Source: a virus (lineage: Duplodnaviria > Heunggongvirae > Uroviricota > Caudoviricetes). From it: a stretch of 64,000 nt of DNA. Under the pieces are notes generated by a model that made no database searches, was not told the origin of the DNA, and saw only the letters and a list, made by a program, of their open reading frames with translations. The position numbers were made by a program, and so were the translations under genes. The DNA lies in IMG/VR virus record IMGVR_UViG_2718218304_000001, positions 50,160-114,159 of that record; one strand, written 5' to 3'. This document shows positions 8,376-43,259 of the stretch, in pieces (position 1 is the first letter of the stretch; each line of letters begins with the position of its first letter).

Positions 8376-9518
8376 TTACAGGTCTGCAAACTGGCTTAGA
8401 GAAGCCTTATCCACGGTAGAATCGATCTGACCTACCAGATATGTGCTTTGCTCTGCCTCTTGTGGCGCAATTTGCAGTGTGTCGGTTAACAACCACTTGT
8501 TCATCCAGACCAGCGGATCAGTGGTAACTTCTGGAAATAAAGCCTTCAGGCCAAGACGATTCATAGCCAGATTGGTGCGGTATTTTACATAGGTTTTGAG
8601 AATATCCGCGTTTAAACCAATCATCGAACCGTCTTTGAAGAGATAGTCTGCCCAGTTCATTTCTTGTTCGGCGACTGATTTCATGGTGTCGTAAATGACG
8701 TTTTCTTCATCAGCAGCAATCTCTTTCCACAATAAACCTTCGCGACCGGTACGCATGAAGCGGATCATGCGTTCAGTTCCTTCGCAATGCAGAGCTTCAT
8801 CACGGGCAATAAAGCGCATAATTTTGGTGTTACCCTCAAGCAACTTCCGTTCACCAAAGGCAAACGTACATGCAAAACTTACGTAGAAACGGATCGCCTC
8901 AAGCGCATTAATGGACACCAACGTGCGGAAAAGCTGACGATGCAAAGGGTATGGCTCCCAGCCATATTCATTTACGTACAGACGCTCAAATTCCTTCTCA
9001 CCTAACGACTGGCGCTCGCAGGTCATCCCATAAAGCCTGTCATATTCAGCAGAGATACTGATCGCTCGGTTGATGATTTCTTCATCCGTAACAATACCGT
9101 CAAAAACAATGCTCGGATCGTCCACCATGCCACGAATAATGTGGGTGTAGCTGCGGCTATGGATAGTCTCAGAGAAAGACCACGTTTCAACCCACGTTTC
9201 CAGTTCAGGAATAGAGATAAGCGGCAGAAGCGTTGCATTTGGGCTACGTCCCTGAACTGAATCGAGTAACGTTTGATAACGGAGATTGCTCAGAAAAATG
9301 TGACGTTCGTGGTCCCGCAGCTTCGTGTTGAAGTCGATACGATCACTCGAAATATCAACTTCTTCCGGCCGCCAGAAGAAAGACAATTGACGTTCAATCA
9401 ACTTTTCAAAATCACGGTATTTTTGCTGATCGTAACGTGCCACGTTGACAGATTGTCCGAGGAACATAGGCTCTTTGGTTGCATCATTAGCACCCAAACG
9501 GAACGTTGAATATGACAT
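8376..9518 (-). CDS. nrdB: ribonucleotide reductase class Ia beta subunit
   Basis: 380 aa; diiron/tyrosyl-radical region and overall NrdB-like sequence; adjacent to nrdA. Confidence 0.9.
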
Positions 9519-9624
9519 GTGTTTTTCCTTTTTCTTTTTTAGTGCGTTTAAACAAGTTGTTATCTTATGTGTTTAAACAAGGCTTACAAATCAAAGAGAA
9601 GGTGGGGATATCCCCCACCATATG

Positions 9625-11940: not shown

Positions 11941-12013
11941 GTATCACCAAATAAAGAGGGCCACTAAATATAGTGGCCCATGTTAATAGATAAGTACTTA
12001 CCTATCAATGAAA

Positions 12014-20545: not shown

Positions 20546-20971
20546 TCAATCTTCTTGTTTAGGGAAAAACTGTTCAATAACTCTGTCAACGGCTGTGTCT
20601 ATATGGAGTAGATGCCACACAACCATATCTTTGCTTCCCATGCCTTGTGTGAATATCACGTCATACTTACGCCATGCGCAGTGGAACCAATATGCTGAGT
20701 CATCAATTGGTAAATCCTCTCCCGCCTCTTTGAAGTATTTCAGCAGCATTGCCTGCTCTGCCGTTGGCGTTGGACCTATTTCCTGAGCGTACATACGGAT
20801 GAATCGCTGCCAGTCTGTCTCGTCGGGGGTTGGATCTGGTGGGGTCATTTCTGCGATAGCGTTTCGTAGCTGATGCGCCCAATCAGGTTCAGGAAAGCCT
20901 TTTGCTACTTCATCATCAATAACATCCAGAGCCACGTTTGCGGCATCGTAGAGTTTCTTAATAGCTGTCAT
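20546..20971 (-). CDS. hypothetical protein
   Basis: 141-aa ORF. Confidence 0.45.
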   Translation of the reverse strand: MTAIKKLYDAANVALDVIDDEVAKGFPEPDWAHQLRNAIAEMTPPDPTPDETDWQRFIRMYAQEIGPTPTAEQAMLLKYFKEAGEDLPIDDSAYWFHCAWRKYDVIFTQGMGSKDMVVWHLLHIDTAVDRVIEQFFPKQED

Positions 20972-21050
20972 GTTTTCTTATCCTTTTAAACAAATTGTTT
21001 TCTTAATAAGATAATTGCGATAAAAAAGGCGTCCTGTGGACGCCTTGTGT

Positions 21051-23390
21051 TTACTCTTCTACTGACTCGGTGGGGTTGTCTTTTGCTCTTCGGTCGTCGA
21101 TTGCCTGCAAAGCCGCAATGATTTCAGCCAGTGGCTTCTCCCGATACATCTCGACGATCTGCGATTTGGTGTATTTCTTGTCACCAATTTCAACTCGCCC
21201 GCTGGCGTTCTTTGGCAGGTATCCTTCTTCCAGCATGTACTCGACGAGCGATTCGATAACGTCGAGGCCACGAGTAGGATCGAAGTAGAATTTCCAGGTG
21301 CATTTGCCATACGGTGGTGCAACTTTGTTTTTGATGCATTCTGCGCCTACGTCCTGGCCGATCTTCTCTTTACCATCCTTCATCACCGATGCACCAAGAC
21401 GGATACGTACAGAAGCGTAGAACTTCGGTGAATCTCCACCTGGCGACGTAGTAGGGTCGCCAAACATTACACCGATTTTTGTGCGAACCTGATTCAAGAA
21501 GATGATGCAGGCGTTGTATTTGCGTGCCCACAAAGCCAGAGTAGGGAAGTTCGCACTCGTCGCACGAGCCAGTGCCGTATTGTCGTTCATGTTTAGCTGA
21601 TCTTTGTCTTTGGCAGTGCCTTCAGCCATCTTTTCGAACTTCTCGGCTTTGGAGTTCGGAACCATAGACGCAAGAGAGTCAGCCACGATACAGATAGGTG
21701 CTGATTCGGGGATAAGCTCTTCATCACGAACCAATTTAAGTATTGTGCCGATCAACTCTACAGAGTCTTCGAAGGTATCTGGCTGCTTGTATACCCACTG
21801 ACCGTCGTCTTCGTCGGCGTTCAGTCCGTTCGCTACCGCCAGACCAACGTCGAAACTGTTTTCGTGGTCAAGGAATACGGCCAGACCATCCTGTTTTTGT
21901 GCTGACACCATCGCAGCCGTCGCGAGGAATGTGTTGTGGCTGATAATCCCGTTAGACCAGAAAGAGTGTGTTTCCGGCATCGCTACGTCGAACGTTGGTG
22001 CTTCACCTTCCTCAATAGCCACGACTTCGTCGTAGAACAAGTTAGAGTCAATTACCGCTGCCAGTTGTGCAAACAGATGCTCGTTAAAACGATTCTTTCT
22101 GCCAATGAAGGAGACATAGATTTCTCGCAGTTTGTCTATTCCGACACGATCGCCGCGGCCAATAACGTGATCTACCAGAACGTAGTCTTTACGAGAGGTC
22201 TTGGTGAGTGACTCGTAGAGTGATTTCACTAAGCCGCTGATGTGCGGAACGTAGCCTAAATAAGTGCGGTCAAAACTAATGTCCCGTTTGGTTGCCACTG
22301 CTAAACGAGCCGGAGACTCGAACCCAATCGTTGACAGGAAAAGGTCGTAGTTAGAGCCACTGAATGACAGCCGGTAATATATGTTTTTATAACCTGCGAC
22401 GTGTTTTTCAGAGATAGTTGACGTAATCCCCAGATTCAGGAGCATGAGGCGAATTTGCTGTAGCAGCAGCCCACTCGCGCTCACAACCTCAATGCAGCGA
22501 CCATCATTGACGTGGCATTCCAGCTCAAAGTAGCCGCGAAGGAATGCAATTTGAGCCTCGCTATTGGCGCGACGCACACTCAACGGAACCTGCTTGCCAG
22601 CAGCTTTCTCATACTCCAGACCATATTCTTTAAAAAGCAGCGAACGCACCTCTTTGCTAAACAGCACATGGTCTTCCGAGCCGTTATGTTTTCTCGTAAC
22701 TGGCATCTTGTCTGATACCAGCGAAATGAGGCGGTAGTACTCATCCTTGATGAAAGGATCTGTGTTAGAAAAATTCACTGAATTTTCAGAGGCCACGTAT
22801 CCGTCAGCAATTAAATAGCCCATCAGTTTTGCGATATTGGCATCCAGGTGCTGATCGCCGAATTGATGTGTGCCAACCATTGAAGGAATCGTGTCGCCTA
22901 CACTGATTTTTTCAGCATGTCGCCAGACGACATTACCTAAGTCGTCAACCACACGGATTGGGTGACGGAACGTAGCCTCGATATAACCGCCTGATGCCAG
23001 CTTAATACGCTTGAATTTGCGACGGTTGTTCCATGTCAGGTGTGAGGTCTTCTCTATCACGCCATTTTCATTGATGAGTCCAACGTTATGCTCTACATCG
23101 CGAGTAGTGCATGTCGCTTTGTACCCTTCAATCTCAAACAACTCTTTCACTGTTACCATTCCACGCTCCGTCAGCAGCATGGTGTCTGCGGTAACACATT
23201 TCCCCGCGCTTGGTGGCCCGAATACTTCTACGATACGACCACATGGGAAACCGCCATCGTAACGACCGGAAATAGCTTTGTTTAACGGAGGAAAGCCTGT
23301 GTCAATCCAATGAGTTACTTTCTGAATTTCGTCGTTGCTACCGATTTTCTTTTTCAGAGCAAGTGCCAGTGCGGATTTTCCTTTTGCCAT
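21051..23390 (-). CDS. UvsX/RecA-like recombinase interrupted by an intein
   Basis: Exteins (about 64 + 293 aa) give a RecA-fold recombinase: P-loop GPPSAGK|T, AVFLDHENS, CIVADSLA. Inserted 422-aa segment begins with Cys and ends His-Asn followed by Thr. Confidence 0.75.
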   Translation of the reverse strand: MAKGKSALALALKKKIGSNDEIQKVTHWIDTGFPPLNKAISGRYDGGFPCGRIVEVFGPPSAGKCVTADTMLLTERGMVTVKELFEIEGYKATCTTRDVEHNVGLINENGVIEKTSHLTWNNRRKFKRIKLASGGYIEATFRHPIRVVDDLGNVVWRHAEKISVGDTIPSMVGTHQFGDQHLDANIAKLMGYLIADGYVASENSVNFSNTDPFIKDEYYRLISLVSDKMPVTRKHNGSEDHVLFSKEVRSLLFKEYGLEYEKAAGKQVPLSVRRANSEAQIAFLRGYFELECHVNDGRCIEVVSASGLLLQQIRLMLLNLGITSTISEKHVAGYKNIYYRLSFSGSNYDLFLSTIGFESPARLAVATKRDISFDRTYLGYVPHISGLVKSLYESLTKTSRKDYVLVDHVIGRGDRVGIDKLREIYVSFIGRKNRFNEHLFAQLAAVIDSNLFYDEVVAIEEGEAPTFDVAMPETHSFWSNGIISHNTFLATAAMVSAQKQDGLAVFLDHENSFDVGLAVANGLNADEDDGQWVYKQPDTFEDSVELIGTILKLVRDEELIPESAPICIVADSLASMVPNSKAEKFEKMAEGTAKDKDQLNMNDNTALARATSANFPTLALWARKYNACIIFLNQVRTKIGVMFGDPTTSPGGDSPKFYASVRIRLGASVMKDGKEKIGQDVGAECIKNKVAPPYGKCTWKFYFDPTRGLDVIESLVEYMLEEGYLPKNASGRVEIGDKKYTKSQIVEMYREKPLAEIIAALQAIDDRRAKDNPTESVEE
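21933..23198 (-). other. intein with LAGLIDADG homing-endonuclease domain inside the recombinase P-loop
   Basis: Cys1 after GPPSAGK; two LAGLIDADG-like motifs (LMGYLIADGYV, FLRGYFELECHV); C-terminal ...SHN then Thr(+1). Confidence 0.65.
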
Positions 23391-27344: not shown

Positions 27345-27673
27345 TGATGCCCGCCAATTGGCGGGCATCTGTTCTCTGTAAAGGTGTCTGGCATCGTCTG
27401 GTTCGTTAACGTTTACTAAACCAATGGTGACAAAAATTAGTTATCTTTGAAAAATAAAGGTTGCATGAAAAGAAGGGGTATGCGTTAATAGCATCGTTGG
27501 TTTGCAAGACAGACCTTATGTAAGCAGTTTTAGTAAAGCAGTCTCAGTTCAGTGTTATCTTCTGATTTCCCTTCTTCGTGAGTCTCCTCCTTAAGTGCCT
27601 AAGTAAGTCCCAATCTATACAGATCAAATTCTCGCCGCACTATGTGGCTCACAAAATTAAGAAGGTAATATCT

Positions 27674-27889
27674 ATGTCTAATAAAATGACTGGTTTAGTA
27701 AAATGGTTTAACTCTGATAAAGGCTTTGGCTTTATTTCTCCTGCTGATGGCAGTAAAGATGTTTTTGTACATTTTTCGGCAATTCAGAGTAATAATTTCC
27801 GCACTTTGGAAGAAGGCCAGCAGGTCGAATTCTCTATCGAGAATGGGGCTAAAGGCCCAGCAGCAGCAAATGTCGTTGCTCTAAGCTGA
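27674..27889 (+). CDS. cold-shock protein (CspA family)
   Basis: [23 protein letters not shown]...[12 protein letters not shown]1/RNP2 motifs of the CspA family; ~71 aa; long 5' leader upstream. Confidence 0.85.
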
Positions 27890-28168
27890 TTCAACGCTGA
27901 TGATCCTCATTTCTACAATAACGAAGACGGTGTAAGCCTGAGTGGATAGATTTGTAGGATTGTACAAGTTGAATAAATTAGCATGGTAAGGCCATGCTAA
28001 TTAAATCGACACAACGGCCAGTTTATTCCATAAAAGTGAATTGCCCATTGTGGCGAAATGCGGGGTTGCCGCATGAATAGTCAAAGGCAGAAGCTAACTG
28101 CCGGCATGGCAAAACAAAGTGCGTAAGAGGAGTGACTTCCTCAACAAGCGCCATAATTCTTTATAAAC

Positions 28169-38797: not shown

Positions 38798-38874
38798 TGG
38801 TGCCGGTTAACGGGATCGAACCGCTGACATCCTGCTTACAAGGCAGACGCTCTACCAACTGAGCTAAACCGGCA
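38798..38874 (-). tRNA. tRNA-Thr (anticodon TGT)
   Basis: Hand-folded: acceptor GCCGGTT/AACCGGC, D-arm GCTC-AGTTGGTA-GAGC, anticodon loop CTTGTAA, T-loop TTCGATC, CCA. Confidence 0.8.
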
Positions 38875-38877
38875 ATT

Positions 38878-38964
38878 TGGTGGGGAGTGATGGAGTCGAA
38901 CCACCCGAGTCGCAATGACAGTAGATTTACAGTCTACCCCGCTGCCCCTACGGACTAACTCCCC
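38878..38964 (-). tRNA. tRNA-Tyr (anticodon GTA), long variable arm
   Basis: Hand-folded: acceptor GGGGAGT/ACTCCCC, anticodon arm GTAGA-CTGTAAA-TCTAC, T-loop TTCGACT, CCA; D-arm pairing less clear. Confidence 0.7.
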
Positions 38965-38969
38965 TAAAT

Positions 38970-39044
38970 TGGCGATGGTGGGTGGATTCGAACCACCGAC
39001 CAGTTGGTTAACAGCCAACTGCTCTACCGCTGAGCTACACCATC
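38970..39044 (-). tRNA. tRNA-Asn (anticodon GTT)
   Basis: Hand-folded: acceptor GATGGTG/CACCATC, D-arm GCTC-AGCGGTA-GAGC, anticodon arm GTTGG-CTGTTAA-CCAAC, T-arm GGTGG-TTCGAAT-CCACC, CCA. Confidence 0.85.
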
Positions 39045-39822
39045 AATTCAGCACTGCCAGTATTTATTACTCAACAGTGCCAATCGCGACGGTTTAGTTT
39101 CTGCCAGGAAACGCACCGCTACTTGCACTTTTCGTTAGTGCCAGACGCTTTCGACTTCGCTCAATAGTAGAAGGCAAAATCTTTAAGTAGATGATGTTTC
39201 TGAGGACAGCACCTACTTTGTAATTTATACAATGTGATGTATGGAATCATTTGTTGTGAAAACAGGCACCAATGGCAACAGTGGTTAAACCTACACAACA
39301 ATCCTGTCTTCACAACGTTGAGGCCACTACTCCGATTGAATGTTTGCCCAACATGTTACATATCAACGCTCGCCGGTATCTCTGTGAATAGAACCTTAGA
39401 ATTGATAAAAATGTAATGGCCTCAACGTTGTGTGCTGGCTAACCATACCAGCCGGGCTACGTCGCCGCTTTTTAACCCAGTATAAACGACATAATTGAAC
39501 AAAATGACGTAACAGGATGGGCGGTCAGTGGCTAAGAATCCGGGAGTCATATGGAGTTGAAAATATACCAACCGCCCATTCTGTTACTTCATCGGAGGGA
39601 ACATGAATGTTCCCTCCTGCGTTCTGCAATCACACTCGCTCAGTGTGTCCCATTTCGGTAACGAGGCTGGAAACTGACCTCGCTGGTGTTTGGCTTATTA
39701 GGCTACTGCCAGATAGACTTCTTCGTTTGCACTTGTATTTAAGTTCAAACAGTCGCGTCTCAACGAAAACAAAGTCATCTTATACATAAAAGATAAGTAA
39801 GTAAATACTTATCACCATGTTT

Positions 39823-43196: not shown

Positions 43197-43259
43197 AGCA
43201 ACTCCTGACTAACAGATGAAAGTATTCTTTCAGAAAAATAAGTAAGTATCTACTTATTA

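Follow-up and report, generated by a model that had tools for sequence, protein, structure and literature searches.

Dispersed operators of a global regulator are a known type of control on plasmids and temperate phages. Omega of the Inc18 plasmid pSM19035 and ParG of TP228 are ribbon-helix-helix adaptors of type Ib partition that bind arrays of 4–10 repeats, and omega controls several promoters, including those for copy number, partition and toxin-antitoxin functions. KorB of the IncP plasmid RK2 is a ParB-family helix-turn-helix partition protein as well as a global co-regulator of replication, partition and other functions. In the case of P1 C1 and mycobacteriophage L5, one repressor silences many operons through asymmetric sites that are bound by a monomer. 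Control at the level of mRNA has been attributed to members of the FljA family, which prevent translation of the fliC mRNA according to work cited in PMC2652032 (Bonifield and Hughes, 2003, and also Yamamoto and Kutsukake, 2006).

Here, we analyzed a 64,000-nucleotide stretch of viral DNA (hereafter, the window) together with related elements, and found that the palindrome AAACAA-N-TTGTTT is the core of a promoter/leader unit of ∼40 bp that is present in ∼20 copies per SSU5-like phage-plasmid. This arrangement resembles omega and ParG in that the gene behind a small ParA encodes another small protein, whose N-terminal tail is basic and flexible, and a site is located at the par promoter; in addition, the inverted pair of 7-bp units of omega is close to the AAACAA-N-TTGTTT geometry. 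However, a single 13-bp palindrome per locus takes the place of 4–10 short repeats, ∼20 promoters including those of phage early and packaging genes carry it, and the adaptor fold is putative. As with KorB and KorA, a 13-bp palindrome (6-N-6) occurs at many promoters (about a dozen in RK2, where some copies lie near −39), whereas, in contrast with KorB, the two ParB_N proteins found in relatives have no apparent link to parA or the motif, and most copies would be located at ∼+13, 3′ of the −10 hexamer. With the P1 C1 operators and the L5 stoperators the motif shares many dispersed short sites, short intergenic gaps and mostly one orientation, but its dyad is perfect and an immunity repressor of SSU5-like elements is available only at the candidate level. 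Finally, as in the FljA/fliC system, the element encodes a PF03614 protein and the motif directly precedes the Shine-Dalgarno sequence in a predicted leader; the part of the fliC leader that is given as a primer sequence in PMC5056187 likewise contains a small A/U-rich dyad (AUCAA...UUGAU) immediately 5′ of AAGGA. On the other hand, the similarity between the two is not significant, some copies of the motif are distant from a ribosome-binding site or upstream of the promoter, and there are ∼20 targets versus one. The overall type of system is thus known, whereas the literature searched contained neither the sequence of this motif nor a description of the motif or the regulon, and nothing relevant was found there on the regulation of SSU5 or pHCM2.

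Identity of the element

In a sequence search, the 5.1-kb segment from dnaB to parA showed 92% identity to Escherichia phage CMS-2020a, ∼90% to Salmonella phage SSU5 and ∼81% to Klebsiella phage-plasmids, and the first 24 kb of the window were 98–99% identical to many E. coli plasmids. Because of these segment identities, the window was considered to be part of an SSU5-like phage-plasmid. Such elements are very common in Enterobacteriaceae: 740 plasmids in PLSDB matched the 5.1-kb segment, and 256 of 5,426 complete E. coli genomes matched the 24-kb segment. Most genes in the window are located on the minus strand.

Several other features of the window were recorded. A full-length match (185.7 bits) to the cspA thermoregulator RNA (RF01766) was found at 27496–27914 (+), and the element therefore carries a cold-shock-type gene plus its leader. 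A 779-aa open reading frame at 21051–23390 (−) is annotated as a LAGLIDADG homing endonuclease in one relative and as RecA in Cyrano, an SSU5-like element; the recombinase of SSU5 at the same position has 359 aa only, and the open reading frame resembles a recombinase gene interrupted by an intein or a homing endonuclease. Three tRNA genes are clustered at 38801–39044 (−).

Palindrome copies in the window

Four palindromic strings and a partial copy near 35341 had been listed in the initial annotation, and all of them could be recovered in place: TTTAAACAAGTTGTTATC (9547–9564), TTAAACAAATTGTTTTC (20986–21002), TTAAACAATTTGTTTTC (53354–53370) and GAAACAACTTGTTTTC (56287–56302). The exact pattern AAACAANTTGTT gave seven matches in the window, which correspond to four sites (three of them readable on both strands) centred at 9556, 20994, 53362 and 56294. 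Only 0.09 matches would be expected from dinucleotide shuffles, and seven were reached in none of 100 shuffles. Similarly, a weight matrix detected four sites of at least 20 bits, compared with 0.0 expected. Together with a degenerate copy centred at 35345, these make five sites, all of which are intergenic. The distances from centre to ATG measured at all five genes, each on the minus strand, were 23–42 nt.

Copy 1 (9550–9562, −; AAGATAACAACTTGTTTAA in gene orientation, 26.6 bits) is centred 38 nt 5′ of the ATG of nrdB (8376–9518) and has one imperfect arm (TTGTTA). It is located 45 nt 3′ of an intrinsic terminator (9601–9619, −) that follows nrdA and directly precedes the copy. An extra half-site, GTTTAAACAAG, is present at 9571–9581 (−), 25 bp from an identical string at 9546–9556; the same spacing separates the tandem copies found before the small-terminase-like gene (terS) and before Klebsiella nrdB. 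Copy 2 (20988–21000, −; AAGAAAACAATTTGTTTAA in gene orientation, 30.3 bits) is a perfect palindrome centred 23 nt 5′ of the ATG of a DUF7238 gene (20546–20971), and it also lies directly behind an intrinsic terminator (21026–21046, −), at a distance of 32 nt. Copy 3 (53356–53368, −; TAGAAAACAAATTGTTTAA), again a perfect palindrome, is centred 26 nt 5′ of the ATG of a dnaB-like gene (51996–53336) and is the most conserved block of the dnaB-upstream intergenic region among 32 distinct relatives. Copy 4 (56288–56300, −; AAGAAAACAAGTTGTTTCA), the third perfect palindrome, has its centre 42 nt 5′ of the ATG of parA (55584–56252), and a possible TATAAG −10 hexamer overlapping it could be recognized by eye from the sequence. 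The degenerate copy (35339–35351, −; AAACAAATTATTT) has one mismatch and is centred 26 nt 5′ of the ATG of a cobT-like gene (33211–35319); unlike this copy, the sites upstream of the cobT-like gene in SSU5 and in the Klebsiella phage pJN2-26 are intact. The proposal that the motif lies upstream of replication and partition genes therefore does not extend to copy 2, whose gene, DUF7238, belongs to neither class.

The promoter contexts of the window copies were weaker than those of the early-region copies. A simple consensus scan detected no canonical sigma-70 promoter in the right place at the four copies, and none of the window copies has a TG extension. Since two of the copies come directly after terminators, a clear promoter context could be seen only outside the window.

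Conservation of the motif in related elements

Three complete relatives were scanned, namely SSU5 (Salmonella), the E. coli plasmid NZ_CP027358 and the Klebsiella phage pJN2-26. The weight matrix was trained on SSU5 and the E. coli plasmid, so that pJN2-26 and the window served as independent tests. Each of these relatives contained 19–21 copies, compared with ∼1 expected (sites of at least 13 bits: 21 in SSU5 and 19 each in NZ_CP027358 and pJN2-26). At the stricter threshold of at least 20 bits, there were 14–20 sites per genome of ∼105 kb, whereas ∼0.03 would be expected. The exact string AACAANTTGTT alone occurs 13 times in SSU5.

When the 64 sites that reached 13 bits were compared by hand with the annotations, 62 proved to be intergenic, while ∼90% of the sequence is coding; thus, the motif does not occur at similar density inside coding regions. 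Orthologous promoters carrying sites include those of terS (two tandem copies), parA, dnaB, the cobT-like gene and nrdB, as well as those of a TerB-like gene, a DUF4942 gene, an HD-domain gene and a dozen small early genes. Orthologous sites were also identified in elements of Buttiauxella, Kluyvera and Yersinia pestis, and the palindrome is preserved at orthologous promoters despite diverged flanks in Salmonella, E. coli, Klebsiella, Kluyvera, Buttiauxella and Y. pestis. Loss of the sites from orthologous promoters, which had been named as an observation that would speak against a regulon, was not seen in the elements of these six genera. Over-representation, intergenic location, conservation and geometry are direct observations, and the first three of them support well, at the sequence level, the earlier suggestion of a second regulon. 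The accompanying restriction to replication and partition genes could not be maintained, as most of the copies belong to the early-gene cluster, beyond the window, and terS is preceded by two.

A distant SSU5-like plasmid from Moellerella (NZ_CP093251), whose ParA is 50% identical, lacked the palindrome regulon, with three weak matches versus 2.7 expected. Its early leaders retain CATAAT-N9-AAGAAAAACAA, that is, a −10 hexamer and the left arm, without the right arm. The retention of the hexamer and left arm indicates that part of the motif, and part of its asymmetry, belong to a leader feature older than the palindrome.

Two further observations were made in these elements. Upstream of parA in the Moellerella plasmid (segment L105, 15347–15480), two direct repeats of AAATAACAAGGC are located 20 bp apart, with AAGAAAACAAT farther 5′; AACAA boxes therefore persist at this par promoter in a different arrangement. 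In addition, a fragment of an SSU5-like element was found in the E. coli chromosome CP125919 (segment L104, 9400–11950), in which the motif is present in decaying form (10.8–22.7 bits) together with a FljA-like gene at 52% identity.

Structure of the repeated unit

The palindrome forms the core of an asymmetric unit that extends beyond it, (TGn)GATAAT-N9-AAGAAAACAA-N-TTGTTTAA-GGAG-ATG, a typical example of which reads TGnGATAAT-aACaCCAAy-AAGAAAACAAnTTGTTTAA-GGAG-N5-ATG. We aligned 83 unique gene-proximal copies with the dyad centre as position 0. Positions −9 to −1 read AGAAAACAA and positions +1 to +6 read TTGTTT, each position being conserved in 82–100% of the copies. Both 6-bp arms are near-invariant, including C(−3) and G(+3), and the base at the dyad centre is free. 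On the 3′ side, +7 and +8 are mostly A and are followed by GG or GGAG. On the 5′ side, AAT occupies −22 to −20, with T at −20 in 96% of the copies. An xAxxxT hexamer, typically GATAAT or TATTAT, ends in register at −21 to −19 in 45 of the 83 copies, and TG is present one base 5′ of the hexamer in 34. The distance between this −10-like hexamer and the site is constant, as would be expected of an operator placed downstream of a sigma-70 promoter of the extended −10 type. Given a start ∼7 nt past the hexamer, the dyad centre would lie at about +13 of the predicted transcript. By comparison, the distance from the centre to the start codon varied between 13 and 44 nt (median 21 nt), and the terS copies are 47 and 72 nt away. 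As the spacing to the hexamer is fixed and that to the start codon is variable, the function of the unit appears to be tied to the promoter rather than to the ribosome-binding site.

Additional copies occur in two regular arrangements. At several promoters, a second copy in inverted orientation is located exactly 51 bp upstream, where it often abuts the terminator of the preceding gene; such pairs were found in SSU5 (88325/88376 and 93668/93719), the E. coli plasmid (20502/20451) and pJN2-26 (24765/24816 and 28545/28596). Tandem copies, at the 25-bp spacing mentioned above, precede terS and Klebsiella nrdB. The flanks of the palindrome are asymmetric (AAGA on the left and AAGG on the right) and have a single orientation relative to the gene. 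Among paralogous copies, conservation extends beyond the palindrome alone to the whole unit of ∼40 bp. Upstream of dnaB, two variants exist, which differ just 5′ of the motif.

The terS leader (SSU5 segment L001, 40–133; pJN2-26 segment L087, 38600–38682) contains, 3′ of its two copies 25 bp apart, a GC-rich hairpin followed by a T-rich tract (GAGCGCAAGGATGCGCTC TGAGTGTTTT). This terminator-like structure separates the first packaging gene from the proposed operator and may act as an attenuator. Some inverted cassettes read directly into terminator hairpins (AGAAAACAAnTTGTTTAAGGCCAC...GTGGCC), as in SSU5 (segment L002, 35590–35660 and 37610–37650) and pJN2-26 (segment L087, 21760–21800), and these terminator-abutting cassettes preserve AAT at −22 to −20 on their own strand. 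An inverted cassette together with its hairpin could give very short motif-plus-hairpin transcripts.

DNA or RNA recognition

With moderate confidence, we favor a DNA operator as the role of the palindrome: a repressor encoded by the element would bind it at about +13 and, at some promoters, also at about −38. The best copies would have TGnGATAAT, an extended −10 sigma-70 promoter, 9 nt ahead of AAGAAAACAA-N-TTGTTTAA, with the ribosome-binding site coming next. The regulator would bind the sites as a dimer and stop either initiation or promoter clearance, and a single switch might thereby act on the early genes, the nucleotide and DNA-replication genes nrdB, dnaB and cobT-like, the parA operon and the packaging operon. 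Transcription starts, binding, repression and the identity of the binder are what we infer here from sequence. Near-invariant arms around a free centre are typical of duplex sites recognized by a dimer. The hexamer register, the weakness of the hairpin, the uncompensated changes in the arms and the copies at about −38 all favor DNA recognition coupled to the promoter. As RNA, the palindrome would form a hairpin of only −0.7 kcal/mol (z > 0), no better than shuffled sequences, and the leaders are less structured than shuffled sequence. No Rfam match was obtained at any of the copies. In degenerate copies, compensatory changes between the arms were not seen, and the changes affected single arms only. 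It should be noted that the oriented asymmetric flanks would not be explained by a symmetric dimer alone and, together with the abutment to the Shine-Dalgarno sequence in most copies, argue against a purely symmetric operator.

These flanks would fit single-strand recognition, and the best-surviving alternative, which we nevertheless consider unlikely, is an RNA operator in which the motif in the 5′ leader would be bound by a FljA-like protein that blocks translation and destabilizes the mRNA, in the manner of Salmonella FljA at the fliC leader. Most copies are located in the predicted leader and abut the Shine-Dalgarno sequence (TTGTTTAAGGAG). All SSU5-like elements examined encode a PF03614 protein, among them elements from the non-flagellate hosts Klebsiella and Y. 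pestis; its retention in such hosts suggests a target on the element itself. In the E. coli plasmid NZ_CP027358 the gene (segment L084, 11669–12193; E = 1.5e-84) corresponds to a position outside the window. The structural model of the protein (pLDDT 83) contains two Sm-like modules, each with a helix and five strands, and its top PDB matches were all Hfq; two tandem Hfq-like Sm domains are thus predicted. No mention of a link between FljA and Hfq or Sm proteins was found in the literature searched. In Moellerella, where the palindrome is absent, the FljA-like protein has diverged to 24.6% identity only.

Against an RNA operator, the fixed spacing is to the −10 hexamer and not to the start codon, and the motifs of parA, nrdB and terS are 38–72 nt from the ATG, beyond the footprint of a ribosome. 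The inverted copies at about −38 fall outside the transcript of the promoter concerned. Single-strand recognition would not need an exact palindrome, and the hairpin is unstable. The helicase/fljA-like operon itself has in its promoter region a TAAGTA-type dyad (NZ_CP027358 segment L084, 9270–9290) instead of the AAACAA palindrome, and in an LF82 lysogen of Cyrano the fljA-like gene was weakly expressed, at ∼2x background (PMC9928086). The best matrix score in the fliC leader was −2.2 bits, which is not significant (p = 0.17 versus shuffles). The fliC leader has CAAGTTGT and CCAATAA in common with the unit; at this p value, we treat the likeness as a lead only. A broader version, to which we give slightly less credence than to the RNA operator itself, is that the FljA-like tandem-Hfq protein acts on the common mRNA leader and post-transcriptionally represses ∼20 operons for early functions, replication, partition and packaging, with Salmonella FljA, the repressor of flagellar phase variation, as a domesticated phage-plasmid regulator and the fliC target as a mimic of the phage leader. 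If so, inverted cassettes ending in terminator hairpins might supply short decoy RNAs.

Candidate regulators

Among the proteins that could bind the proposed DNA operator, a ParG-like protein is the leading candidate. The first gene behind copy 4 is parA (55584–56252, −), which encodes a small partition ATPase of 222 aa (phrog_164, ParA-like). It is followed, with a one-base overlap, by a gene for a protein of 119 aa (55225–55584, −). A small ParA without an N-terminal DNA-binding domain next to a small adaptor gene is the layout of type Ib partition loci. The 119-aa protein has a basic disordered N-terminal tail (MGDLAKR...PQGRPTRGK), a putative β-strand (IKSRTMSLEDE) and two helices (TRSDVIRAAI), and the putative DNA-reading strand is invariant among homologues that are only ∼50% identical overall. 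On these grounds it looks ParG-like, with a putative ribbon-helix-helix fold. Pfam gave no match for this protein, its monomer model (pLDDT 64) contained helices only, and neither a PDB sequence search nor Foldseek supported a ribbon-helix-helix; hhalign against ParG and CopG sequences was uninformative. If the ParG-like protein were the binder, it would be partition adaptor, autoregulator and global repressor together, as omega or KorB, and the reuse elsewhere of a par autoregulatory site, which the initial annotation had offered as the alternative to a second regulon, is a live candidate on the present sequence evidence. In the LF82 lysogen of Cyrano, the ParG-like gene was expressed at 9x background, with dnaB and primase near background (PMC9928086). 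Transcripts of the parA operon are detectable in the lysogen, so any repression there would be incomplete. Moellerella keeps a homologue of the 119-aa protein with a near-identical strand (IKSRTVSMEDE), yet it is without the palindrome regulon.

Another candidate is an Xre-type helix-turn-helix regulator (35882–36268, +) that adjoins the integrase and corresponds to the 'putative repressor' CYRAN_45 of Cyrano. No copy of the motif is present in the intergenic region of this regulator (35631–35881), and SSU5 lacks this gene, yet has 21 copies. SSU5 may be a recent deletion derivative; the candidate is weakened by both observations. Two ParB_N proteins are present in relatives, far from parA and outside the window. 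We also examined whether motif and regulators vary together: the motif was unchanged even at 53% identity of the FljA-like protein and at ∼50% identity of the ParG-like protein, which gave no signal of co-variation. Moellerella, the sole motif-free relative, differs in every candidate regulator, so this comparison does not discriminate among them.

The same layout allows a reading in which expression is secondary, namely that the palindromes form a dispersed centromere, serving as loading sites for ParA and the ParG-like protein in the way of chromosomal parS or the OB sites of RK2. A copy is present at the parA promoter, ∼20 copies are distributed over the element, and a small ParA with a small basic-tailed adaptor corresponds to type Ib. 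A repeat search of 55100–56700 revealed no iterated array near parA, the single palindrome being the only one upstream of this gene; since ParG- and omega-type proteins usually have repeat arrays as their sites, this result counts against the ParG-like protein as binder of the proposed operator. However, loading sites would leave unexplained the fixed −10 spacing and the placement before start codons, the copies are clustered in the early-gene region and not evenly spread, and the adaptor fold and its DNA target are only putative. We regard a dispersed centromere as improbable.

Of similarly low probability, in our estimation, is an explanation without any regulator, in which the unit is a cassette of a strong early promoter and an A-rich unstructured leader that was multiplied by recombination, and the palindrome is a by-product or a recombination boundary. 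This would fit the conservation of the entire ∼40-bp unit among paralogous copies, the low structure of the leaders, the two dnaB-upstream variants that differ just before the motif and the hexamer and left arm retained in Moellerella without the right arm. It would not explain the near-invariant C(−3) and G(+3) and the arms around a free centre, the regular spacing of inverted copies (51 bp) and of tandem copies (25 bp), or the copies at parA, dnaB and nrdB, which are not early genes and have different promoter contexts. A site for a host factor such as IHF is very improbable: the motif is unchanged among elements of several enterobacterial genera and its core resembles the IHF consensus (WATCAANNNNTTR), but by inspection it deviates at two conserved positions and was judged a poor fit, IHF sites are asymmetric whereas the palindrome is perfect, no other host regulator is known to use such a site, and the motif is absent from the Moellerella relative despite the common backbone.

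Significance and a second palindrome

No account of how SSU5-like elements change from being maintained as plasmids to growing lytically was found in the literature searched. One operator common to ∼20 promoters would provide an experimental handle on this switch and define its set of target genes, and the 13-bp palindrome is a possible probe for a regulator pull-down and lends itself to an easy test by mutation. Were the partition adaptor the binder, segregation would be linked to the silencing of lytic genes; with the FljA-like protein as binder, the system would also bear on the origin of flagellar phase-variation control.

In addition to AAACAA-N-TTGTTT, a palindrome of the form TAAGTA-NN-TACTTA is located in intergenic regions of the window at 33179–33192, 39798–39811 and 43243–43256, and also near 11991–12000 and 58888–58897. 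The TAAGTA hexamer occurs 47 times versus 23 expected. SSU5, pJN2-26 and the E. coli plasmid contain this palindrome as well, some of it within the structural-gene cluster, and it probably represents a separate regulon.
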